From an archaeon GW2011_AR15 (lineage in GTDB: Archaea > Nanobdellota > Nanobdellia > Woesearchaeales > GW2011-AR15), in contig CP010425.1 of the NCBI GenBank assembly GCA_000830295.1, positions 1,093,691-1,157,690 of the forward strand: 64,000 nucleotides of DNA, read 5' to 3'. The translations under genes and the position numbers were made by a program. Below the pieces are notes generated by a model that did not search any database, had not been told where the DNA came from, and was given only the letters and a program-made list of their open reading frames with translations. Shown here in pieces: positions 19,180 to 64,000 of the stretch; the stretch's first letter is position 1, and each line of letters starts with the position of its first letter.

Positions 19180-20712
19180 ATGGCAGAAAGGAACAGCAGG
19201 AACGAGCTTGCATGGGGGGCTGAAAACCAGGAGAAGCTCAGGAAATCAAAGGTCCTTGTTGCCGGCACAGATATACTCGGCCAGATGGTGCTTGGAGGAC
19301 TTGCGGGACTGGGCATAGGCAGCATACATCTCATGGACAACAGGAGGGTAAGCAGGGGAGATTACGATTTTCTGTGCTCACAGACCAATACAGATATCGG
19401 GCAGAAAAAAACCAGCCATATCAGAAGCACGCTGGAAAGCATAAATCCTTCTATCGATGCGGTTGTAGCTATCCATTCCAGATTCTCTGAAGCCCTGGCC
19501 TATCCTCTCCGGCCGGATATAATAGTGGACGCGACTAACGACCGGCTAACAAAGAAAAAGACTTCTGAATATGCAGCCAAGTACAGGATTCCTGTTATAT
19601 CTGCCTCTTCAGGGAGTTCAAAAGCTGCTGTTTCTGTTTTTTCTCCGGCTAGGAAAATAAAACCAATGCACAGCTCTGCTGACCTTGATTCCCTTCTCAT
19701 GGATGAATTCTATAAAGAGACGCAGTCTCCTGTGGCGGGCGGGGTCATAGCAGGGATTGCATGCGAGGAAGTGAGGAAGCAGATATTTGCGTATGATAAA
19801 AAAGATACTCCCCTCCAAAACAGGAAAAAAATCATGTATAACCTGAATTCTGAGTCCAGGACAGGAGTTTCTGAACCACAAAACATAGCTTCGTATTTCA
19901 GGCACAGGAAAATGCTGGTTGCCGGGGCAGGGGGCATTGGAACTTTTGTATGCCTTAATCTTGCTCTGCTTGGTGTAGGCTCTATTGATATAGTGGATTT
20001 TGATTCTGTCGAAGAGCACAACCTGAACAGGCAGCTCCTTTTCTACGGCAGGCAGGGTGAGCTGAAGGCTGAAGTGATGGCTGGCAGGATAGCCCTAATA
20101 GACCCTCATGCAGATGCTTCTGCTTTTTCCGCCAGGGTTGGGAAGATAGACATGAAAAAGGACAGGCCATGGCTGGAAGAGCTGTATGAGACAGACAGGA
20201 AGCTGTGGGAGCAGGAAGACGATAATACAAGAGAGCCTGATTATCCTGGGTTTGAGGATTATGTAAAAAAGAATTTCGGCTATCAAAAGGACAGGCTGCT
20301 TGATGAGAAGATCGCAGAAAAAGGCTATGATATGATTTTCGGCTGCCTTGACAACAAGTATGCAAGAATATGGCTCAACAATTTCTCTGTTAATAACAAA
20401 ATACCCTATATTGACGGCGGAACCGCTGCCAGATCCGGCCAGGTTGCTGTGTATGTTCCCGGAAACACAAGCTGCGTGGACTGCCAGCTCGACCTGAAGC
20501 ATCTCAAAAGGATTCCCATGCACTGCCATGAGGCAGATGCCAGCGTGGTCATGTCAAATATGGTTATAGGAAGCGCAATGGTCGGCGAGGCAGTAAGGAT
20601 ATTTTCCGGTGCAGCCCCCCTGAACGGGATTCTGAGATATGACCCCTTCTCTGATTCGCGGCTGTATATAGATAATAAAAGAACAAGGTTTGCAAAAAAA
20701 CACGGGTGCTGA
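19180..20712 (+). CDS. Tandem ThiF-domain E1-like (ubiquitin-activating-like) enzyme
   Basis: Domain 1 degenerate (VAGTDILG, DATND); domain 2 intact (GAGGIG, DFDSVEEHNLNRQ, CLDN, CVDC, IPMHC); start set at ATG 19180 after TTTAAAA. Confidence 0.85.
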   Translation: MAERNSRNELAWGAENQEKLRKSKVLVAGTDILGQMVLGGLAGLGIGSIHLMDNRRVSRGDYDFLCSQTNTDIGQKKTSHIRSTLESINPSIDAVVAIHSRFSEALAYPLRPDIIVDATNDRLTKKKTSEYAAKYRIPVISASSGSSKAAVSVFSPARKIKPMHSSADLDSLLMDEFYKETQSPVAGGVIAGIACEEVRKQIFAYDKKDTPLQNRKKIMYNLNSESRTGVSEPQNIASYFRHRKMLVAGAGGIGTFVCLNLALLGVGSIDIVDFDSVEEHNLNRQLLFYGRQGELKAEVMAGRIALIDPHADASAFSARVGKIDMKKDRPWLEELYETDRKLWEQEDDNTREPDYPGFEDYVKKNFGYQKDRLLDEKIAEKGYDMIFGCLDNKYARIWLNNFSVNNKIPYIDGGTAARSGQVAVYVPGNTSCVDCQLDLKHLKRIPMHCHEADASVVMSNMVIGSAMVGEAVRIFSGAAPLNGILRYDPFSDSRLYIDNKRTRFAKKHGC

Positions 20713-20715
20713 AAA

Positions 20716-21816
20716 ATGAAACTGCTTGATGATATACTCAGTAAATATTTTTACAAAACTGCAGGCTCTTCTGGCTCTGATGCCTATGATTCGTCAAGAC
20801 CTGATTATTCTGAGAGGTTCAATTTAAGGGATGACGGTCCGGAGTATATCATGAAGATGCAGAGATATCAGTACAGGTTCAGGGAGTGTCTTGAATCCAG
20901 GCTTGAAAACCCGTCTGAGCCCGGAGAATACAGCAGCAGGATGATAAAGAGCACGGCAGCAATGACAGAGTTCTGTAATGACTATGGCTTTGACGTATCT
21001 TCCTATATCAGGAGCCGCGCGTTTAATGAAAGGAGAGAGCTGCTGAAAGAAAAGCTCAGGAGGAGGATTGCCAGAGATTCCAACAGGGAGATAGACAAGA
21101 CAGTTGCAGATGCTGCAAAGAGCATTAAGATAACAGATTACGCCCTGAAAAAAGCGAATTATGCTGCAAGAAAAATTTCAGAGCTTTCATCAAAAGCAGG
21201 GAAGCGCGGTTCGTACGAACTAGGCATGTACATGCTGAGCAGCTCTTTAAAGAATGACGATGATGTCGTGACTGATATTTATGTTGCACAGGAGCAGGTT
21301 GTGACCCAGGGCAGGTGCAACATAACCCCTGAGGGTGTGATGAAGTCGCTGAGAGATACAAAAAAATCAGGGAAGAGGATAATAGGCTGGGCCCATTCCC
21401 ACGGCGGCTTCAGCACATTCTTCTCAGCAGAGGATGATGAAACCCTTCTCGGCAGGAAAAATATAGCAGAGAGCTCTTTTTTCCCGATGTTCCTTGAGAA
21501 AAAGGTTAAGGGGCATTTAGCGCCTGATGATGTGGTAAAATATTTCCTTGCACTTGTGGTAAATGAGAAGAACGATGAGCCGGCCTACAGGATAGTGGCT
21601 GTCAAGCCGAGGTATTTTGTTGAAAACGGGAGACTCAGGAAAAAGACAGAAGTAATAGACCTTGAGAGGACTATATCAGAAAACAGCGGGGAGAACTGGC
21701 CTGCTGCTGAGATAGCGGAAGAGAAAAGCAGGGAAATTGATGCAGAGATAGCCGGCCGCGTAAAGTTCCAGGACGGCACAAGATTAAGTGATTATCAGCC
21801 TGTTGTGACTGAATAA
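20716..21816 (+). CDS. JAB/MPN+ (JAMM) metalloprotease with N-terminal helical extension
   Basis: YELGMYML...IIGWAHSHGGFSTFFSAED = E..HxHx7SxxD; 3 bp after the E1 stop. Confidence 0.85.
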   Translation: MKLLDDILSKYFYKTAGSSGSDAYDSSRPDYSERFNLRDDGPEYIMKMQRYQYRFRECLESRLENPSEPGEYSSRMIKSTAAMTEFCNDYGFDVSSYIRSRAFNERRELLKEKLRRRIARDSNREIDKTVADAAKSIKITDYALKKANYAARKISELSSKAGKRGSYELGMYMLSSSLKNDDDVVTDIYVAQEQVVTQGRCNITPEGVMKSLRDTKKSGKRIIGWAHSHGGFSTFFSAEDDETLLGRKNIAESSFFPMFLEKKVKGHLAPDDVVKYFLALVVNEKNDEPAYRIVAVKPRYFVENGRLRKKTEVIDLERTISENSGENWPAAEIAEEKSREIDAEIAGRVKFQDGTRLSDYQPVVTE

Positions 21817-23015
21817 GGCGTGCCGTAAATCCCAAGGTGGTTGGCAACTGGCCTGCCTCCCAGTTCCGCTGTATAGACAATGCCGCCTTTGTTCTCTATA
21901 ATCAGTGAGCTGGATCCCCCACCGTCCATATTGATTGCATGGCTTGCCTGGTTTTCCAGCAGTATATATGCAAGCTCCCTGAAATTGAGCCCTGGCATAT
22001 CTCCTGTATCCCCTACTGATATAACAAGTACAAGATGCTCATTCTCTTCATCCAGGCCTATTGATGTCCTCGGCCTTCTTGTCTCATACCCATCCTTGTG
22101 GTCAGGATGGCCCTTGTCCTTAACTTTTGCATTCACATCTCCTTTTACCACCAGTGTTGTCGAGCCTGAGATTGCATTGTAAACCACATTAGGCCTTTTT
22201 CCGATGCTGACTTCATTGTCTTCTGAGATGAAGATTGGCACTTCCCCTGAATCTTCCGGCCTTTCTGCATACAGGTCTCCGAGCGAGGCTGCCAGCCCTG
22301 CAACATCTGCGTTCGAGCTGTATACTGTGCCAGGAGGCCAGGGCCACTGGTCGCCGTTGATTGCTATCTGCACTCTCTGCTGCCTCTGGAAATCAATAGC
22401 CGGCTGCAGGCCTGTCTGATGAGGGGTCACAAGGAAGCTTGTCCCCGGGTCTCTTAATGCAATCTTTACGACGTAATAGTGCACAGGGAATCCCTCTTCT
22501 GTGATATAATCATCTTCCTTGTAGATTATATTCCTGTAAATCATCTCAAAGCCCTCGGGGATTTCCACTTTTTTGTAGTCCAGCTCCCTGTGCTCGAATG
22601 CCTCAAAGCTTGTTTTCTGCTCTGCTTTTGACAGCTCTATAGGGAAATCCAGGTATACAAAGAGGTTATTGCCTATGAATTCTGCTTCATAAGCTGGAGT
22701 CTGGTAATTTACGTTGTATTCCTTTTCTTTAAAGGTTTTAAAATCGTCAATGCAATCCATGTAGTGGTCTTTGAGATAGTCTTCCACTAATTCCGGGTCG
22801 TCAACAACCCACAGCTTCTCTTTCAGCTCCAATACTGTGAAATGCACGCACCCTGTCACGTAATCCTTTAATGATTCTTTTGTCTGAGTGAACAAAACTG
22901 CCTCTTCCCCCTCGTTCCGGAGGCTGTTAGGGTCTAAGGTGATGATGAATGCCACAATGAAGACCAGGAGAAGCCCTATTATAACGAATGCAGACGTCAT
23001 CCCTCTTTTGTCCAT
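21795..23015 (-). CDS. Exported phosphodiester glycosidase (NAGPA-like) domain protein
   Basis: N-terminal KRG plus hydrophobic helix; AINGD, RPRTSIG, AINMDGGGSS, RPVAN. Confidence 0.8.
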   Translation of the reverse strand: MDKRGMTSAFVIIGLLLVFIVAFIITLDPNSLRNEGEEAVLFTQTKESLKDYVTGCVHFTVLELKEKLWVVDDPELVEDYLKDHYMDCIDDFKTFKEKEYNVNYQTPAYEAEFIGNNLFVYLDFPIELSKAEQKTSFEAFEHRELDYKKVEIPEGFEMIYRNIIYKEDDYITEEGFPVHYYVVKIALRDPGTSFLVTPHQTGLQPAIDFQRQQRVQIAINGDQWPWPPGTVYSSNADVAGLAASLGDLYAERPEDSGEVPIFISEDNEVSIGKRPNVVYNAISGSTTLVVKGDVNAKVKDKGHPDHKDGYETRRPRTSIGLDEENEHLVLVISVGDTGDMPGLNFRELAYILLENQASHAINMDGGGSSSLIIENKGGIVYTAELGGRPVANHLGIYGTPYSVTTG

Positions 23016-23709: not shown

Positions 23710-24426
23710 ATGCAACCACTACAGCACCAGATGATGGGTTATGATAGGGCAATTACAATGTTCTCTCCTGACGGGAGGTTATTGCAGGTAGAATATGCAA
23801 AGAAAACAGTAAGGCAGGGCAGCACTGCAATCGGAATAGTCTGCACTGACGGAATAATCCTTGTCACTGACAAGAGGATTGTCGACAAATTGATAGTCCC
23901 TGAGTCCGTCGAGAAGATATGGAAAATAGACGAGCACATAGGCGTCACAGCCTCAGGAATAATAAGCGACGGCAGGGTGCTTATAGAAAGGGCGCAGGTA
24001 TTGGCGCAGCAGCACAAGGTGACATACGACTCACCTATTGATATAATATCCATTGTAAAGGATGTCGCAAACCTGAAGCAGTGGACAACGCAGTCAGGAG
24101 GGTACAGGCCTTTCGGCGTCTCACTGCTGATAGCAGGCGTTGACAACGGCACTCCGAAATTATACGAGACAGACCCGACAGGAATATATTTCCAGTACAA
24201 GGCAACTGTGATAGGGGAAGGCGAGCCACAGGTCGAGGAAGTGCTTTACAAGGAATACAAGGAAAGCATGAACATGGAAGACGGCTTCAGGCTGGCAATG
24301 AGATGCCTCAAGAAAGCCCTTGACAAGAATTTTGACACTGAAAGGGTGGATGCGGCATTTATTTCCCTGAAGGACCAGAAATTCACAAAGGTGAAAAAGG
24401 AGAAACTTCTTGCATACGCAAAATGA
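23710..24426 (+). CDS. psmA: Proteasome alpha subunit
   Basis: GYDRAITMFSPDGRLLQVEYA, RPFGVSLL, ETDPTG. Confidence 0.97.
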   Translation: MQPLQHQMMGYDRAITMFSPDGRLLQVEYAKKTVRQGSTAIGIVCTDGIILVTDKRIVDKLIVPESVEKIWKIDEHIGVTASGIISDGRVLIERAQVLAQQHKVTYDSPIDIISIVKDVANLKQWTTQSGGYRPFGVSLLIAGVDNGTPKLYETDPTGIYFQYKATVIGEGEPQVEEVLYKEYKESMNMEDGFRLAMRCLKKALDKNFDTERVDAAFISLKDQKFTKVKKEKLLAYAK

Positions 24427-27631: not shown

Positions 27632-30223
27632 TTATTTTTCTGTTTTATTTTCTGTTTTGGTGTTTTCGCTTACAGCATAATTAAGCATCTGCATTGACAG
27701 GTTGTCGAGGAATGTCGTTTTCCTGGACACCGCCAGAGTAAATTCTTTAATATCAAGTATTGACGAGAGAGCATCGTATGCCGGGAACTTATCGCCGTTA
27801 TTAAACATGTAAAGCATATCTTCAAAGCTGTTGTGCCTGACATTCAGCAGGACTTTTGCATTATCTGTGCCGGGTTCTGTCTTGTATACAAAAAGCGGCT
27901 CTCCCCTGCCAAGAAGTGAGGTCTCTTTGCCGAGATAATACCCCATATTGTAGATTGCCAGCATTGTATTATCCCTATCCCTCCTGTCGTGGCCATAAGC
28001 AGGACTGCTGTGCTTCATAACCTCATATTCAATGCTGCCCTTATCATAATAGCCAAAGCATTTGATTATTTCGTCCCTGATAAAGTCTTTCAGCTTAGCT
28101 ATACCCGGGTATGTTGTTTCATCCGGGGTGTATTCTATTACAGTCGGGAACCGGGGCACGCCCTGTCTTTTGCCATTGCTCTGGTCCATTTTGCTTTTTA
28201 TTGTTTCCCCTACCCTTGCTATGCCATATATTGCCGCGCCTCCGACAGCCAGAGGAACCCCTATAGCCAGCACACCTGCCCCGACTGTCATGATTGTCAC
28301 TACTCCTGTGCCTATCAGAAAAGTCCCTCCAACCACAATTCCTGCGCCTCTTGCAACTCCTTTTACAGCATGCCCTGCTGCATATGCAGCATCCCTAGCT
28401 GCCCGGGTAGTCGCAGGTATTGTCCTTCTGAGTATTTCCATATCATAGTTCTTCATTTTGGTTGGTTTTGCGCTTTTTACAAGGTCTACAAGACCTCTGT
28501 CAAGCGGGTTCACCCTGATTATATTGCTCTTCTCCATCTGCGATATAAAAGGCGTCCATATGCTGTTAACCATGTAGCCGAATCTCGGGTTGTCAAGAAG
28601 AGAGACAAAATCCTCGAGCGTGATATTTTTGCTGTTTACATTGCTGAACATTACTGTTTTTGATATCCTGTCATACACTCCTGCTATTGTATCTTCGTTC
28701 TTGTATTCCCTGTTCTTTCCGTATGTGTGGTAAATCTTGGCAAAGTCAACAAGGTATTTCAGCGCGGCATTCTTTTCTGACATGCCCCCTTTTTTCATAA
28801 AATCAGGGAGCTGCACTACAAAATCCAGGTATTCCTTCTGGAGCTTTCTTATTATCCTGTTGTAAAGCGGGCTGGACTCGTTTACCTTATCCCAGAGCCA
28901 TCTGGTTACTTCAAGCTCTGGTGCTTCTATGGAAGCCTCTACCCCAAGCATTGAACCGGTGAACAGGTTCCTGTCAACCTTGTCTATGTAAACTCCCTCT
29001 TTCAGGAACTCCATGTTTCCTGTGAAAGAATGGCGCCGAGGCCTGAGAGGCATGCCGAAGAAGCCATGGAAATCCTTATCTTCTATCTCTGCCATGTAAA
29101 GATATCTCCCCTTCAGCCCTGGCTTTCTTTTTGGTGCCTCTATCCTTGCTTTGGCCTGCAATTCTTTACTGAATTCTTCACTGTAATCAACAAGCTTATC
29201 TCTGCTTCCGAGCAGCATCTGGATAGCGGCCGCTTCTTTCTGGCCAATAACAAGTGTAATGCCTCCGTCCAGACACTCATGCTTTTCTGCTTCAGATGTC
29301 GGGACATAGCGCACTTTCCTGTTTTTTATTGCATCTTCCAGCGATACTGCTTTTCCTGCAGTTGACATGAAAAACTTTGCCTCAAAGAAACTGTCACGGT
29401 CTGCGCCGAAAGTTTTTTCCTCGTAATCAAAATCATCATCTTTCTCCGGCCTATAGTGCGCCAGTGCCGAAATTATCCTTGGCCTCAGGTATTTCACATG
29501 CGCCCTTTCATTGTGGTCATACTTAGATGCCGCTTTTGCCAGGAATTTCGCAACTGCCTGGTCTGCTATGGTCTGTTTAATATGCTTTTCCTTGCCGTTG
29601 TCCAGGCCTGTAAATTTCTCATCGTATATCTGGTATTTTGTATTCATGACTATCTCCGTGGCCGGCAGGAGTGAGTAGTCCCTTATGGTATCAAGATAAC
29701 GGTCATGGTAGAGCACTGTTATATCTGAGCGGATTTCACTTTTCTCATCCATATTGAGTACATAGTCTGAATAGAAGGTCCCGTAGCTGCTGTAGTATAC
29801 AGAATTCATAATCGGTGTTTTCGGAACATAAAAATCAAACTGGTATCCTGAAAGTGAAACCGAGTCCTTAATCAGTATGTTCTTCTCTTTAAACTTAAAT
29901 TCAGGAGTGTCTTCAAGGAATCTCTGCCTGTAGACAGATGTCTGAAGGTCCTTGTTGACTTCATTAAGGTGCTGTATAGGGAATCCTTTGATTCCCTTCA
30001 GCTGTTGCAGAAGCTCCAGGAGCTCTCCATTCCCGATATATACTGCATCCGGTGCAATTTTCAGCGCCTTTGAGCCGATGAATCTCCTGTCTGTAACATA
30101 CTCTATCTCCCCTCCCGTCCGGCCTGCAAGTTTTACAAGCTCTTCAAGGTCAAGTGCTGTACCGTCCAGCTTCTTCACTCCCTCAATCTTCATGAGTTGA
30201 GATATCAATTGCTTGTCATTCAT
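27632..30223 (-). CDS. Large hypothetical protein with Hsp90-middle-like modules and a Gly-rich membrane segment
   Basis: 863 aa; FFMSTAGKAVSLEDA, MFSNVNSKNITLEDF, LLNVRH; hydrophobic AGIVVGGTFLIGTG...GGAAIYGIA. Confidence 0.6.
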   Translation of the reverse strand: MNDKQLISQLMKIEGVKKLDGTALDLEELVKLAGRTGGEIEYVTDRRFIGSKALKIAPDAVYIGNGELLELLQQLKGIKGFPIQHLNEVNKDLQTSVYRQRFLEDTPEFKFKEKNILIKDSVSLSGYQFDFYVPKTPIMNSVYYSSYGTFYSDYVLNMDEKSEIRSDITVLYHDRYLDTIRDYSLLPATEIVMNTKYQIYDEKFTGLDNGKEKHIKQTIADQAVAKFLAKAASKYDHNERAHVKYLRPRIISALAHYRPEKDDDFDYEEKTFGADRDSFFEAKFFMSTAGKAVSLEDAIKNRKVRYVPTSEAEKHECLDGGITLVIGQKEAAAIQMLLGSRDKLVDYSEEFSKELQAKARIEAPKRKPGLKGRYLYMAEIEDKDFHGFFGMPLRPRRHSFTGNMEFLKEGVYIDKVDRNLFTGSMLGVEASIEAPELEVTRWLWDKVNESSPLYNRIIRKLQKEYLDFVVQLPDFMKKGGMSEKNAALKYLVDFAKIYHTYGKNREYKNEDTIAGVYDRISKTVMFSNVNSKNITLEDFVSLLDNPRFGYMVNSIWTPFISQMEKSNIIRVNPLDRGLVDLVKSAKPTKMKNYDMEILRRTIPATTRAARDAAYAAGHAVKGVARGAGIVVGGTFLIGTGVVTIMTVGAGVLAIGVPLAVGGAAIYGIARVGETIKSKMDQSNGKRQGVPRFPTVIEYTPDETTYPGIAKLKDFIRDEIIKCFGYYDKGSIEYEVMKHSSPAYGHDRRDRDNTMLAIYNMGYYLGKETSLLGRGEPLFVYKTEPGTDNAKVLLNVRHNSFEDMLYMFNNGDKFPAYDALSSILDIKEFTLAVSRKTTFLDNLSMQMLNYAVSENTKTENKTEK

Positions 30224-59837: not shown

Positions 59838-60014
59838 TTATTCAAGTACCTCTAAGACTCTTGCATCAACCTTTATCTTTCCGCCTGTTGGCTGCGCAAT
59901 TGGCTTGCCGCACACAAGGCAGTTGACTACAGAAGCTGCTTTCCCGAACACAATCTGCTCGTTCTTGCACTTCCCGCATCTTACTTTGATAAATTTTGAA
60001 TCCGGTTCTCTCAT
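59838..60014 (-). CDS. rps27e: 30S ribosomal protein S27e
   Basis: SKFIKVRCGKCKNEQIVF, CLVCG, PTGGK. Confidence 0.95.
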   Translation of the reverse strand: MREPDSKFIKVRCGKCKNEQIVFGKAASVVNCLVCGKPIAQPTGGKIKVDARVLEVLE

Positions 60015-60145
60015 GAATATCACCAGAGTGAAGAAAACGCGGTTCATTTATAAATATATTGCATAAGGGAAAAATAGAGAATAAAAGGCCGCGGGATATC
60101 CGCAACCCAATTTTAAAAAAACCCCTGGTCTTTGTGTTTACTATT

Positions 60146-61009
60146 CTATTGTAGTTGTAATTTAAATACTTTTTGGTTGTCTGAATGCATTATTCTGTCT
60201 AATGGGCTCTTTGTTTTTATCAGCCTTGGCTTTGCGGCGTGCGAATACCCAAATGTTGTTTCCGGATGCACATGGCCGAGCAGGGCCTGGACTGTAGATA
60301 TGTCTTCATCTGATTCTAAAAGGTGTGTGGTGAATGAGTGCCTGAACATATGCGGGTGGAGATGCCTGCCCAGCCTGGATGATTTTCCTGCTTTCCTGAC
60401 AATCTCCTGCACAGCCTTTACTGACAGATGAGCACGATTTCTTCCCGGAAAAATATAGCTGTCAGACTGGCCAGCAAGTTCTTTCAATGGCTTTTCCAAG
60501 ACTTCCGGAATGATAAAAGGCCTGTCTTTCCCTCCTTTGCCCTGCCTTACCCAGCCGACAAGGCCCTCAAAATCAAAATCTGATTTTTTCAGCCGGACAG
60601 CCTCCCCCACCCTCAGGCCTGCCCCGTACATTAGGGCAACAATCAGCCAGTGCTTTTTATTGCTGATGGCCTCCAGCACCTGCTTAATCTCCTGCTCTGT
60701 CAAAAAATCAGGTTTTTTCACAGGTATTTTGCTGAACCTGATCTTGAGATACATTGCCTTATGCAGGATATCAACCATCATGAAGCGCAGGGCATTATGG
60801 GCCACATTGAGAGTGCTCCCGCTCACTCCCTTTTCCTGCATCCTGTATAAAAAAGCCCTTACATCTTTTTTTGAGAATTCCCTTGGAGATTTTTCTTTTG
60901 CAAACAGCAGGAATTTCTTCACGTAAATCAGGTATGTTTTGACTGTTTTCCTGCTCATGCCCCTGCGAAGCATCTCTCTCCTCATGTTGTAGATTATATC
61001 AACAGCCAT
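60146..61009 (-). CDS. Tyrosine recombinase, XerA/integron-integrase-like
   Basis: SAM-like N-domain; intact R (GLRVGE), K (GKGGKDR), HxxR (HMFRHSF), H (LLGH), Y (TFGY); likely start ATG 61009. Confidence 0.92.
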   Translation of the reverse strand: MAVDIIYNMRREMLRRGMSRKTVKTYLIYVKKFLLFAKEKSPREFSKKDVRAFLYRMQEKGVSGSTLNVAHNALRFMMVDILHKAMYLKIRFSKIPVKKPDFLTEQEIKQVLEAISNKKHWLIVALMYGAGLRVGEAVRLKKSDFDFEGLVGWVRQGKGGKDRPFIIPEVLEKPLKELAGQSDSYIFPGRNRAHLSVKAVQEIVRKAGKSSRLGRHLHPHMFRHSFTTHLLESDEDISTVQALLGHVHPETTFGYSHAAKPRLIKTKSPLDRIMHSDNQKVFKLQLQ

Positions 61010-61171
61010 TAAATGCCACAACCGGCCTGCCTTAATATGCCCCACCATTAAAAACTCGAAAAAATGCTTCTCCTTGCCGGTTATTTTTACCACTCTGTCA
61101 TCCAAACACTTTTTCTGCCCCAGATATCCAGAACCAAACCACTAACGCCCCGAATCCCCCAAAACCAGCCT

Positions 61172-61199
61172 TCTTCGCATATAAAGTGTTAAGTTCAAT
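61172..61199 (+). other. dif-like Xer recombination site (11-6-11)
   Basis: TCTTCGCATAT-AAAGTG-TTAAGTTCAAT, at the transition to AT-rich DNA. Confidence 0.55.
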
Positions 61200-61276
61200 A
61201 AAATTTGAGTTCCTTTTGACTAAAACGAGGGGGTTCCTGTCCTTCGGACATATTGCCTTTTGCTTCGCAAAAGAAA

Positions 61277-61576
61277 TTATTTTTTACTAAGGGGCACACT
61301 TTTTTTAACAGAAATACCGCCAGAACATTTTTTAACATCAATCTCGATTCCACTCGACCATGTTAATTTATCAATAAGACTTACAGGTATTGTAATCATA
61401 TATGATGAACCTATATTTAACAATTTATTGAGTGAATTTTTAGATTTTTTTATAATTAATTCGCCATTATTAATAGATATATCTAACAAATCATTCTTTT
61501 GCCATTCTACTTTTCTCATTATGTGTAGAGGAATTGCTATTCTAAAAACCCTCCATCTTATTTGTCTTAATTTCAT
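61277..61576 (-). CDS. Tandem AbrB/MazE (SpoVT)-like DNA-binding protein
   Basis: Two repeats, FRIAIPLHIMRKVEWQKNDLL and YMITIPVSLIDKLTWSSGIEI. Confidence 0.7.
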   Translation of the reverse strand: MKLRQIRWRVFRIAIPLHIMRKVEWQKNDLLDISINNGELIIKKSKNSLNKLLNIGSSYMITIPVSLIDKLTWSSGIEIDVKKCSGGISVKKSVPLSKK

Positions 61577-61854
61577 TTTTCAAGTTTTAACTGATATACA
61601 ATCTTATTCTTTTCTTCATCGTATAATTTTTTTAAATAACCTGTTTTTGTAAGTTTTTCAAGTGCCTTATGTGTGGACTGCCTATTTAGGAAAATTTCAT
61701 TCTTTTTCGCAAATGAATGTATCTCATCCATGCTTAGGTTTTGATTCTTCTCAACAAAGAGTAGTATTTTAATATGTTTTTCATTTTTTAATGCTCCAAA
61801 TTTTTTAGCACTATCTTTCACATTATCTTGATTAACCTTTATTCTTACTTCCAT
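61573..61854 (-). CDS. Winged-HTH (ArsR-like) regulator
   Basis: FGALKNEKHIKIL...STHKALEKLTKTGYL; ATGA overlap with the AbrB-like gene. Confidence 0.7.
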   Translation of the reverse strand: MEVRIKVNQDNVKDSAKKFGALKNEKHIKILLFVEKNQNLSMDEIHSFAKKNEIFLNRQSTHKALEKLTKTGYLKKLYDEEKNKIVYQLKLEK

Positions 61855-61944
61855 AATATACTAAATAAGTATATCCATATTTAATGATTTGTCTCCACTT
61901 TTGCTGACAAGATTTTATATCTTATTGGAAATACCAATAATTAT

Positions 61945-62604
61945 ATGGACGTTCCTAATAATGCTCAAATAAAGCGAGATTTTGAAGCTATGCAAAAAAT
62001 CTCTAAGGCAATCAAGAAAGTCATAGTCAAAATTGGAGATATCTCTATTATTAAGGAAGAATTAGCCCCCGAAGGATTAAAACCTCTTGCCCGTTCAGTA
62101 AGTTGGTTAGTGGAACAAATAATGGTTCAAAATATAAGGAAGTATAAAGATGAATTAGGTATTGAAAAAGTTGAAGACCCCCCAAGTAATGTAAGCTTAT
62201 ATGATTGTTCGATCAAGTTTAGAGGAGAATCTAAAATATATTATCTTAATCTTAAAACTAGTAGTGCTGGTGCAAAAAAGACAAAAGATGATATTTCAAA
62301 AGCAGATAAATTAATAGAGTTATATCAGAGTGATTCAGATTATACCTTATTTGTTGCTGTTTTAAAAGTGATATTTAAAAATACTCACTTAATATTAAAT
62401 CACGAAAATAATTTAATAATATTTAATATCGCATGGATTCCTGATATATACTGTAACCCAAGAAACAATAATTTACAATCAAGTGAGTATGACCAAACTC
62501 AATTTAGAACTAATCAAGAGTTCCTTCAACAAATAAAGGCACACTATAAAGTGTCTGTTGAGAAAAAAAGAAATCAAGTGAGCCAAACTACTTTAGAATC
62601 TTAG
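61945..62604 (+). CDS. Putative type II restriction endonuclease (PD-(D/E)xK-like)
   Basis: LVE...YDCSI...YYLNLKTS pattern; convergent with the methyltransferase. Confidence 0.6.
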   Translation: MDVPNNAQIKRDFEAMQKISKAIKKVIVKIGDISIIKEELAPEGLKPLARSVSWLVEQIMVQNIRKYKDELGIEKVEDPPSNVSLYDCSIKFRGESKIYYLNLKTSSAGAKKTKDDISKADKLIELYQSDSDYTLFVAVLKVIFKNTHLILNHENNLIIFNIAWIPDIYCNPRNNNLQSSEYDQTQFRTNQEFLQQIKAHYKVSVEKKRNQVSQTTLES

Positions 62605-64000
62605 AAAGAATATCATTAATTTGTTTTAATAAGTGTGAATTTTCTTCAGATTTACGTGCTAATCGCGTTGCCTCATCAAATTTTTCTGCAATAAGGTCAA
62701 TATCATTTTGACTAACTTTATTCATATCAGGAACTAATATATTTTCAATATCCTTTGGCTGTAATTTATCTAATCCTCCACCCATAGGACTTATCACTCT
62801 TTTGATTAATTCCTTACAAATTGATGAATTTAGAAAAGCTACAAGAAACTTGATAGTATTTTCATCTTTTGTTTTAGGATAAATGCCATGAAAAGTAGTT
62901 AAATTAAGACAATTAGAATTATTTAAAATAAATTTTACACCATCTCTGCTAAATGTGCCCGCCCAAATTCTTGCAGGTTCTCGTTTTTCCATTGAATACC
63001 AAGGATTTCTTTTTGATGGCAAATATTTATCTGGTATTTTTTGGGCTTCACCATGTTTAATATATTTTAATAGGTTATTAGATGGTTGAGAAAAAACATA
63101 TAATAAATATGCAGGTTTGTTTGTAATAACAATATTATTAAAATCTGATTCATTGAAAGTATGAAATTTACAGTTTAAAGATTTCTCTAAAACAGGACGC
63201 GTGAAGTTTTCTTCAATCCCCCAGTTAGAAAGGTCTGATTTGGATAAAATATAATATTCATTAGCTCCAGTAGCAATTCCTCTACACACTCTTGCATAAT
63301 TAGACAATTTTACGAGATTATGTTTTGTCTCGTTAAAAGTCTCATTCACTTCAAAATAATTATTCCATTTCTCTTTATAATTTAAATCATGTTGCTTATA
63401 CTTAAATAATCTAATTGTGGTGGAAGTAGGATTATTATCATGTAATGTATCTAATAATATTTTTTCATCCCACCTACTTAGCTTTATCATTTTAGCTTCT
63501 TTAGTTTTAATATCAGAACTGCTTTTAGTCAAAATTGTAATACACGCAGAAGACAAATTATCCTCAAAAATTAAAGAACCGTTATCAAAAGTTATTATTG
63601 ATTCTACTTCACAATTTTTTTTTATGAAACTTTTCAAATCTACACCATAGTTAAAATTTAAATAATCACTAGGCGTAATAAAGACTAATCTTCCATTCTC
63701 TTTGAGCATGGAAATAGCCCTATAAAAAAAGAGTGCATAATAGTTAACTAATCTACTTACTTTAATATAGAGCTCATTTTCTAATTGGGTAATTATTTGG
63801 TCTCGTTCACCTACGCCTTGAAACCTAATGTACGGCGGATTAGCAATAATTAAGTCGTATTTTTTTTTATTTTTGAAAAATAGAAAATCTTCATTTAGGT
63901 AGTTAACTTTAATTTTTTTATTACGAGAAAGATTTATTCTTGACATAAATAAACAAAGAGGGTCTTTTTCTATAATATCACATTCTATTTGCTTATCATT
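62588..64000 (-). CDS. N6-adenine DNA methyltransferase (gamma class, Eco57I/TaqI-like), 5'-truncated
   Basis: DLIIANPPY, GRLVFITP, RGIATGAN; frame open to the window edge (IIEKD upstream of ATG 63946). Confidence 0.9.
   Translation of the reverse strand, partial: NDKQIECDIIEKDPLCLFMSRINLSRNKKIKVNYLNEDFLFFKNKKKYDLIIANPPYIRFQGVGERDQIITQLENELYIKVSRLVNYYALFFYRAISMLKENGRLVFITPSDYLNFNYGVDLKSFIKKNCEVESIITFDNGSLIFEDNLSSACITILTKSSSDIKTKEAKMIKLSRWDEKILLDTLHDNNPTSTTIRLFKYKQHDLNYKEKWNNYFEVNETFNETKHNLVKLSNYARVCRGIATGANEYYILSKSDLSNWGIEENFTRPVLEKSLNCKFHTFNESDFNNIVITNKPAYLLYVFSQPSNNLLKYIKHGEAQKIPDKYLPSKRNPWYSMEKREPARIWAGTFSRDGVKFILNNSNCLNLTTFHGIYPKTKDENTIKFLVAFLNSSICKELIKRVISPMGGGLDKLQPKDIENILVPDMNKVSQNDIDLIAEKFDEATRLARKSEENSHLLKQINDILSKILK

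Follow-up and report, generated by a model that had tools for sequence, protein, structure and literature searches.

Beyond the eukaryotes, complete ubiquitin-like cascades have been described in a small number of archaea (Caldiarchaeum and Asgard) and in defence systems of bacteria (Bil, CBASS and Bub). UbaA, the archaeal enzyme of the UbaA-SAMP-JAMM1 system, is a one-domain enzyme for which no E2 is needed, and the pairing of an inactive with an active adenylation domain in a single E1 chain is reportedly a striking eukaryote-like trait of BilD, the E1 of the Bil systems. The present analysis concerns a 64,000-nucleotide stretch of the genome of the DPANN archaeon GW2011_AR15 (contig CP010425.1, positions 1,093,691 to 1,157,690; hereafter the window), in which a gene for an E1-like activating enzyme with two such domains is followed, after a gap of 3 bases (AAA), by a gene for a JAMM/MPN+ metalloprotease (Table 1). 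The two products are likely to be the activating enzyme and the deconjugating or processing protease of a ubiquitin-like conjugation system confined to some DPANN archaea (Nanoarchaeota/Woesearchaeota-type), a minority of the group. A system of this kind is already known in Bil, and the one considered here is an archaeal variant with the simplest two-domain E1 among those compared.

As described in the published work on Bil (10.1101/2023.09.26.559546), the cassette comprises a modifier, an E2, a JAB/JAMM protease and an E1, and the protease pre-processes the modifier by removing the tail after its Gly-Gly (GG). The same text presents BilD as a single chain with an inactive and an active adenylation domain, the former donating an arginine, together with a helical Cys domain of ~80 amino acids (aa) in the crossover loop and a zinc site built from two crossover-loop cysteines and two cysteines near the C-terminus. 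The original prediction, drawn from the letters of the window, had assumed that prokaryotic E1s are all one-domain homodimers; this premise is outdated because the single-chain pair of BilD had already been published. A comparable processing step is described for Caldiarchaeum, in which the tail of the pro-modifier after GG is cut off by an Rpn11-type JAMM protease (PMC5654768).

The window E1 has the same two-domain plan. Pfam ThiF matches it in three stretches (E 6.7e-66), and Pfam, the AlphaFold2 model and a reading of the motifs agree with the predicted pair of ThiF domains, the first degenerate and the second intact. In the first half, VAGTDILG occupies the GxGxxG position and DYDFLCSQ the NLNRQ position. 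In a protein search, ~90 homologues with both domains were recovered at full length (425-622 aa), assigned to Woesearchaeota, Nanoarchaeota or Nanobdellota wherever the source was named, with one-domain ThiF proteins as the next matches. The family alignment comprises 92 full-length members and has 10 invariant columns. Within the inactive domain, G29 (the sole residue of the first-domain glycine motif kept across the family) and K125 are present in 92/92 members, N120 in 86/92 and R7 in 79/92, while G249, G251, N281, R284, Q285, K296 and D391 of the active domain are each found in all 92. An architecture shared by all 92 of these proteins, with 10 columns that never vary, is well beyond chance, and by its sequences the fused two-domain E1 is a conserved family and no oddity.

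The candidate catalytic cysteine proposed in the IPMHC motif is kept almost throughout this family (C449, 91 of 92 members). It lies 14 residues past CVDC, the cysteines of which (C432 and C435) occur in 69 members each; C510 is present in 66, and position 508 is a cysteine in 43 and a histidine in 13. By analogy with the zinc site of BilD, CVDC and H508-G-C510 probably form a zinc site in the window E1, and R7 matches the position of BilD Arg9. The insertion noticed in the second domain was also recovered, at ~62 aa (residues 317-383) and with no cysteine, and at least 45 residues between positions 318 and 380 are found in 25 of the 92 members.

The AlphaFold2 model of the E1 (predicted local distance difference test, pLDDT, 93.3; predicted template modelling score 0.94) consists of two Rossmann-like halves, with pLDDT down to 73 in the loop of Cys449 (residues 441-450). 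Its top solved matches in Foldseek are UBA1, UBA7 and UBA6 (E ~1e-22). With VIA-align, the model superposes on UBA1 with Z 33.0 over 429 residues (root mean square deviation, rmsd, 3.0; 20-22% identity) and on BilD (8tz0_A, 8tyz_A) with Z 32.5 over 380 residues (rmsd 2.7), which is a tie by the program's own rule, and one-domain MoeB is matched with Z 25.4 over one domain only. The window E1 has the single-chain architecture of inactive and active adenylation domains seen in UBA1 and BilD, and departs from the one-domain form of MoeB, ThiF and UbaA in having two domains, the first of which is without GxGxxG and NLNRQ. No domain is inserted at Cys449, which stands on a loop with no separate helical Cys domain in the model, and the chain stops at residue 510, straight after the active domain; therefore, the protein has neither a Cys domain nor a ubiquitin-fold domain. 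Compared with UBA1, UBA6 and UBA7, whose inactive-plus-active core superposes across the whole DPANN chain, the latter is half the size and is without the FCCH, SCCH/Cys and ubiquitin-fold domains. Compared with BilD, the inactive-active pair and, at the sequence level, the position of the arginine and the Cys pairs are shared, whereas the ~80-aa helical Cys domain is missing and Cys449 sits on a short loop. A further difference is that BilD is missing from the 60 solved chains to which the E1 sequence was matched at E <= 0.001.

A quick tree (maximum likelihood, 80 rows) included three eukaryotic UBA3 sequences and was built without UBA1, SAE, NAE1 and BilD. In it, the inactive domains form one clade (Shimodaira-Hasegawa-like approximate likelihood ratio test 99) that takes in the inactive domain of a second AR15 paralogue, and the active domains cluster with seven short ThiF proteins that the protein search had returned. 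The tree lacks a comparison with eukaryotic E1s (UBA1, SAE1, NAE1) or BilD because a search for longer fused forms and UBA1-type sequences returned two proteins of the non-ribosomal peptide synthetase type only. The three UBA3 sequences fall apart from the active domains of the family. Consequently, 'eukaryote-like', as the enzyme had been called, is apt for the two-domain core but not for the rest, given the lack of Cys and ubiquitin-fold domains and the distance from UBA3. Five one-domain ThiF proteins of ~300 aa (P0095, P0100, P0101, P0104 and P0106) are nested in the clade that the active domains of this family form, and could be split or ancestral one-domain forms.

At the sequence level, the best solved matches of the E1 include SAE2 (E 3.1e-15), UBA3 (1.5e-14), UBA1 (1.8e-13) and MoeB (5.4e-13) for the active domain, and t6A-dehydratase-type (TcdA-like) chains for the first domain (8ide_A, 2.9e-7; 9hmp_A, 5.6e-4). 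The E1 is also matched by PADLOC E1-E2 (Cap2-type) models, at E 1.8e-19 at best and chiefly within residues ~235-325. The TcdA-like matches, together with ThiF (1.7e-42) and MoeB (4.2e-41) as the top NCBIfam rows, are what would be expected if the protein were a duplicated but otherwise ordinary adenylyltransferase of the MoeB/ThiF/TcdA type, serving sulfur transfer or cofactor or tRNA modification, beside a JAMM protein unrelated to tagging. Those NCBIfam rows lie far under their cut-offs, with no model reaching its own; the nucleotide motifs of the first domain are lost, the genome holds a separate canonical ThiF and ThiS pair, and the family travels with a JAMM protease, a protein with an HPx..IC motif and GG-ended proteins. 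An ordinary adenylyltransferase is, on this evidence, highly improbable.

The second gene of the pair encodes the complete JAMM motif that had been predicted for it. Prok-JAB matches residues 155-244 (E 3.2e-6) with 27.5 bits, above its cut-off of 25, and the zinc-site motif consists of E168 and H227-S-H229-x7-S237-x2-D240 in a GWAHSH context; E168, H227 and H229 do not vary among 21 aligned family members, and at least 90% of these retain S237 and D240. The window protein also has an N-terminal extension of ~150 aa. The solved chains matched by the family profile are headed by the Rpn11-like protease of Caldiarchaeum (E 3.6e-12), which makes 'Rpn11-like' a fair description, with CSN5, BRCC36, PfJAMM1 and Rpn11 next (E 1.8e-7 to 7e-7). 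The Bil protease BilC is reached at E 0.62 only, a point of difference from that system, and PADLOC gave no JAB or defence-protease match for the window JAMM protein. In some related cassettes two JAMM paralogues occur, on either side of the E1 gene (loci L041, L042 and L051) or in tandem downstream of it (L046). Some of the paralogous proteins at these loci show motif changes of S to T and D to E, and the paired paralogues recall active/inactive MPN pairs.

Neighbourhoods of up to 18 kb round 20 homologues from other genomes were analysed together with two loci of the AR15 genome itself (22 loci), with open reading frames (ORFs) called and clustered. The usual cassette runs from a small GG-protein through an E2-like gene (product of ~420 aa) to the E1 gene, with a JAMM gene adjoining, and resembles the Bil cassette of modifier, E2, protease and E1. 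A JAMM-family gene lies at most three genes from the E1 gene at 20 loci and directly beside it at 18, none being found at L043 and L045, and the pairing of the two window genes is in this sense conserved. The E2-like family (~350-620 aa, no Pfam match) is represented at 19 loci, the exceptions being L041, L056 and the locus in the window, and a clustered GG-protein of 130-160 aa precedes the E2-like gene at 13 loci. A psmA-like gene neighbours the E1 gene at 2 loci. The distance to psmA in the window had been put at ~1.9 kb, which is accurate (start at 23710, Pfam Proteasome E 1.4e-55, 1894 bases past the JAMM stop); the meaning attached to this nearness to the proteasome operon does not stand, as it is not conserved. 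At three loci with another sub-type of modifier (L052, L055 and L056), an AAA ATPase gene lies directly upstream of the modifier gene; the L055 ATPase matches Pfam AAA at E 5e-34 and, below the cut-off, a proteasomal-ATPase OB family (E 0.0013).

No ubiquitin-like, E2 or E3 gene was found within the window, as had been predicted, and profiles built from the cassette neighbours match only places outside it. The modifier-family profile matches the AR15 genome at 1082667-1083185 (E 1.3e-29), which puts a candidate gene ~10.9 kb ahead of the window start, at a distance of 30 kb on the upstream side of the gene for the E1; the E2-like profile matches at 965163-966410 (E 2.2e-72) and 135093-136436 (E 2.5e-97). 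The window E1, the E2-like protein at 965 kb and the modifier candidate at 1083 kb have their best matches in the same foreign cassettes (L042, L043, L047, L049, L046 and L050). The 135-kb copy belongs to a second AR15 cassette, the parts of which are the most distant relatives of this group. To judge from these sequence relationships, the system is probably split in AR15, with the E1 and JAMM genes in the window and the modifier and E2-like genes elsewhere. This supports the earlier idea of a conjugation/deconjugation module whose modifier is encoded elsewhere in the genome, and the locus can be explained without the host-derived modifier that was offered as another option. The AR15 genome is a single contig of 1.16 Mb (96.8% complete). 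In G036, a sister genome from its taxonomic family, one contig carries JAMM-E1-JAMM and a different contig E2-modifier-E2; because G036 is split like AR15, the split layout is inherited and no assembly accident. The modifier candidate adjoins a lipoprotein-like gene, homologues of which flank the E1-JAMM pair in G036. As such a system can be scattered over the genome, operon-based surveys would miss it.

The E2-like family is assigned with moderate confidence to E2-like enzymes. None of 20 members departs from H317, I326 or C327, and at least 90% have P318, so that an HPN-type motif (HPFV..x..IC, with F in place of N) precedes a candidate catalytic cysteine. In the 965-kb copy the distance from H to C is 10 residues, which we take to be the usual spacing in UBC enzymes. 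The structural evidence concerns the C-terminal domain, modelled with pLDDT 82.8: in Foldseek, 41 of the 49 rows listed are UBC E2s or UFC1 (E 0.098-0.54), VIA-align places it against E2s with Z 6.2-7.1 amid coiled-coil noise of up to 8.9, and its structural neighbours in the ESM Atlas include clusters of Prok-E2_D, UQ_con, E2-CBASS and UFC1, none of which reaches the bar set by the tool. The family profile found no match among solved sequences, and a search of 1.84 billion clustered proteins for the domain gave 689 representatives at E <= 0.001. At ~415 aa, with a long N-terminal part of beta structure and coiled coil, and in archaeal hosts, the DPANN E2-like protein differs from its Bil counterpart. 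A short copy at genome positions 175172-175792 (- strand), comprising the C-terminal domain alone (199 aa, 175172-175768), has alanine in place of the cysteine (HPFV...ELAY) and, from its sequence, may be a catalytically dead variant of the UEV (ubiquitin E2 variant) kind. Short E2-like copies are likewise present in G036, as open frames of 212 and 263 aa.

In the modifier family (15 sequences), the second glycine of the near-terminal GG is the only invariant column, and it is followed by 0 to ~16 residues; one sequence ends in GG and another in GGK. By analogy only with the systems already described, we infer adenylation, thioester formation, E2-like transfer and tail trimming, with this modifier as the partner of the window E1. 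The JAMM protease would trim the tail past the GG of the precursor (LKWQAYKV in AR15). The E1 would then act as a single-chain pseudo-dimer, its N-terminal domain serving as scaffold and probably as donor of Arg7 and its C-terminal domain binding ATP/Mg, in which the active domain adenylates the C-terminal Gly-Gly of the ~140-aa modifier and Cys449, on its short crossover-type loop, takes the modifier as a thioester. From there the modifier would move to the invariant cysteine of the ~415-aa E2-like protein and on to target lysines, and the JAMM protease probably also removes conjugates.

Several observations weigh against such a conjugation system. The window locus consists of the E1 and JAMM genes alone, and the assignment of the modifier and E2-like genes to this E1 comes from best-match grouping only, because both are absent from the locus. 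The modifier is without a Pfam match, its profile gives nothing below E 0.059 against solved structures, and its Atlas model is poor (pLDDT 0.40) with no usable Atlas match. Foldseek returned no match for the E2-like protein at E <= 0.001, no Pfam E2 family was found in the AR15 copies or in the best 108 of the 689 representatives, and PF00179 and PF14460 gave nothing at E <= 10 against the genome (Pfam PF00240, ubiquitin, likewise had no match there). The window JAMM protein (366 aa) is without the C-terminal extension of ~160-210 aa that its two closest relatives (526 and 577 aa) possess, and the E1 family was not found in any of the three same-genus genomes sampled, because of which the system appears dispensable.

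The last two points and the missing modifier and E2-like genes would also suit a decaying, non-functional remnant of a formerly complete cassette. Both reading frames are nevertheless open, with full-length cores and all conserved catalytic residues; intact partner genes are present elsewhere in the genome, and G036 keeps the same split layout. Decay at the window locus is accordingly regarded as very unlikely, and a working but dispersed conjugation system is preferred.

A somewhat less remote, though still unlikely, alternative is that the window pair works on another substrate, either the modifier of the second cassette (134-139 kb) or a ThiS/SAMP-like protein at 461 kb, possibly by conjugation without an E2 as in archaeal SAMPylation. 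This would agree with the lack of modifier and E2-like genes beside the window genes and with Cys449 on a short loop, as in one-domain E1-like enzymes, and not in a separate Cys domain. Candidate substrates also exist, in the 205-aa ORF of the second cassette, which ends ..AGKGGR, and in a ThiS-family match at 461156-461296 (E 1.5e-6). Each of these, by contrast, has an enzyme nearer to hand. The second cassette contains E1 and JAMM genes of its own (a JAMM-like motif of HFH-x8-S-x2-D, and an E1 with 30% identity to the window E1 and without CxxC and the insertion), and its parts are the most distant relatives of the window E1, the 965-kb E2-like protein and the 1083-kb modifier, all three of which have their best matches in the same foreign cassettes. 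Its 205-aa ORF was tried as a homologue of the modifier profile and rejected (hhalign E 0.038, probability 1.4%, not significant). The ThiS-like gene adjoins a strong one-domain ThiF (223 bits), from which it is divergently oriented (genome region 460075-462175). The protein after this pair has the SGGKDS motif, presumably of a PP-loop enzyme to judge from reading its sequence, and the region at 460-461 kb looks like a separate sulfur-relay set.

The distribution of the proposed conjugation system was sampled in 300 other genomes of the phylum, with an E1 threshold of E <= 1e-20. The E1 is present in 36 of them, with one positive among the six genomes that represent other genera of the family, and the E2-like domain is present in 40. 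The two occur together in 35 genomes, the E1 occurs alone in 1 and the E2-like domain alone in 5. Matches to the modifier profile occur in 21 genomes, all of them inside the E1- or E2-positive set. Related genomes are not independent, and this co-occurrence is to be read as a pattern, not a statistic. No match to the E1 was found among plasmids by tblastn at 1e-8, viral contigs contained no relative, and phage records gave two partial MoeB-annotated matches for the E1 only and none for the E2 domain. A literature search found no paper on a DPANN two-domain E1 or this cassette, although supplementary tables of the Bil and Caldiarchaeum work might list archaeal members.

The cellular role is possibly protein turnover or regulation or, by analogy with bacterial Bil systems, antiviral defence. 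A role in conflict or defence would agree with the patchy distribution, the presence of several cassettes in one genome and the layout resembling that of Bil; the housekeeping neighbours, the Rpn11-like protease and the AAA ATPase of the three cassettes with the other modifier sub-type fit protein turnover.

Among archaeal systems, the operon of Caldiarchaeum subterraneum and Asgard (ubiquitin, E1-like, E2-like, small RING finger protein and Rpn11) shares its domain of life with the DPANN cassettes, which differ in showing no visible RING-type E3, in their gene order and in a modifier of ~140 aa; Pfam ubiquitin and UQ_con recognise neither the DPANN modifier nor the E2-like protein. The UbaA-SAMP-JAMM1 system (PMC4443979) likewise relies on a ThiF-type adenylation domain whose cysteine stands on a short loop, and its modification is reversed by a JAMM protease. 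It differs in that AR15 has a separate one-domain ThiF next to the ThiS-like gene.

The same E1 core as in BilD is now placed, in its simplest form, in DPANN archaea, which adds a data point on the origin of the E1 pseudo-dimer and its Cys domain and suggests a likely function for three families of hypothetical proteins. The E2-like and modifier partner families have as yet no model in curated libraries. A more speculative and unlikely extension is that the DPANN two-domain E1 stems from the same ancient duplication as the eukaryotic E1s and BilD and is a minimal surviving form of the ancestor of all canonical E1s, with the cysteine still on a loop and neither a Cys domain nor a ubiquitin-fold domain, accompanied by unmodelled E2 and modifier families, and that these symbionts might act on host or viral proteins. 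The single old clade of the inactive domains and the equal fit of the fold to UBA1 and BilD would be compatible with such a descent.

Table 1. Features of the E1-JAMM locus and of its candidate partners; positions refer to the window unless marked as genome positions.
Feature	Position	Strand	Remark
E1-like activating enzyme (P0001), 510 aa	19180..20712	+	inactive and active ThiF domains in one chain
Inactive adenylation domain, ~residues 1-225	19180..19854	+	nucleotide motifs degenerate; R7, G29, N120 and K125 kept
Active adenylation domain, ~residues 232-510	19873..20709	+	GAGGIG, NLNRQ, K296, D391
Helical insertion, residues 317-383, no Cys	20128..20328	+	model helices 325-345 and 358-366; one sub-clade only
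CVDC (432-435) and candidate catalytic Cys449 (IPMHC), short loop	20473..20526	+	conservation and model
C-terminal H508-G-C510	20701..20709	+	putative second half of a zinc site with CVDC
JAMM/MPN+ metalloprotease (P0002), 366 aa	20716..21816	+	Pfam Prok-JAB
JAMM catalytic residues E168, H227, H229, S237, D240	21217..21435	+	21-member alignment
Modifier candidate, 143 aa from ATG, ending ENASGG + LKWQAYKV (8-aa tail)	genome 1082757-1083185		modifier-family profile
E2-like gene, ~415 aa	genome 965163-966407		147 kb from the window E1; neighbour-built profile
Second cassette	genome 134479-138984		205-aa ORF (..AGKGGR), 448-aa E2-like, 384-aa JAMM-like, 463-aa two-domain E1

Around the pair, the upstream neighbour of the E1 gene is a divergent CorA gene, and the order 3' of the JAMM gene is a convergent NAGPA-family gene, Rpp14/Pop5 and psmA. 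The NAGPA-family (phosphodiester glycosidase) gene, at 21795-23015 on the - strand, covers the final 22 bases of the JAMM gene. Further on, an unannotated 863-aa ORF (27632-30223, - strand) directly follows a run of exosome and RNA-polymerase-subunit genes. Over positions 60001-64000 the G+C content falls from ~0.44 through 0.38 to 0.28 at the window end, which is 100 bases short of the end of the contig.

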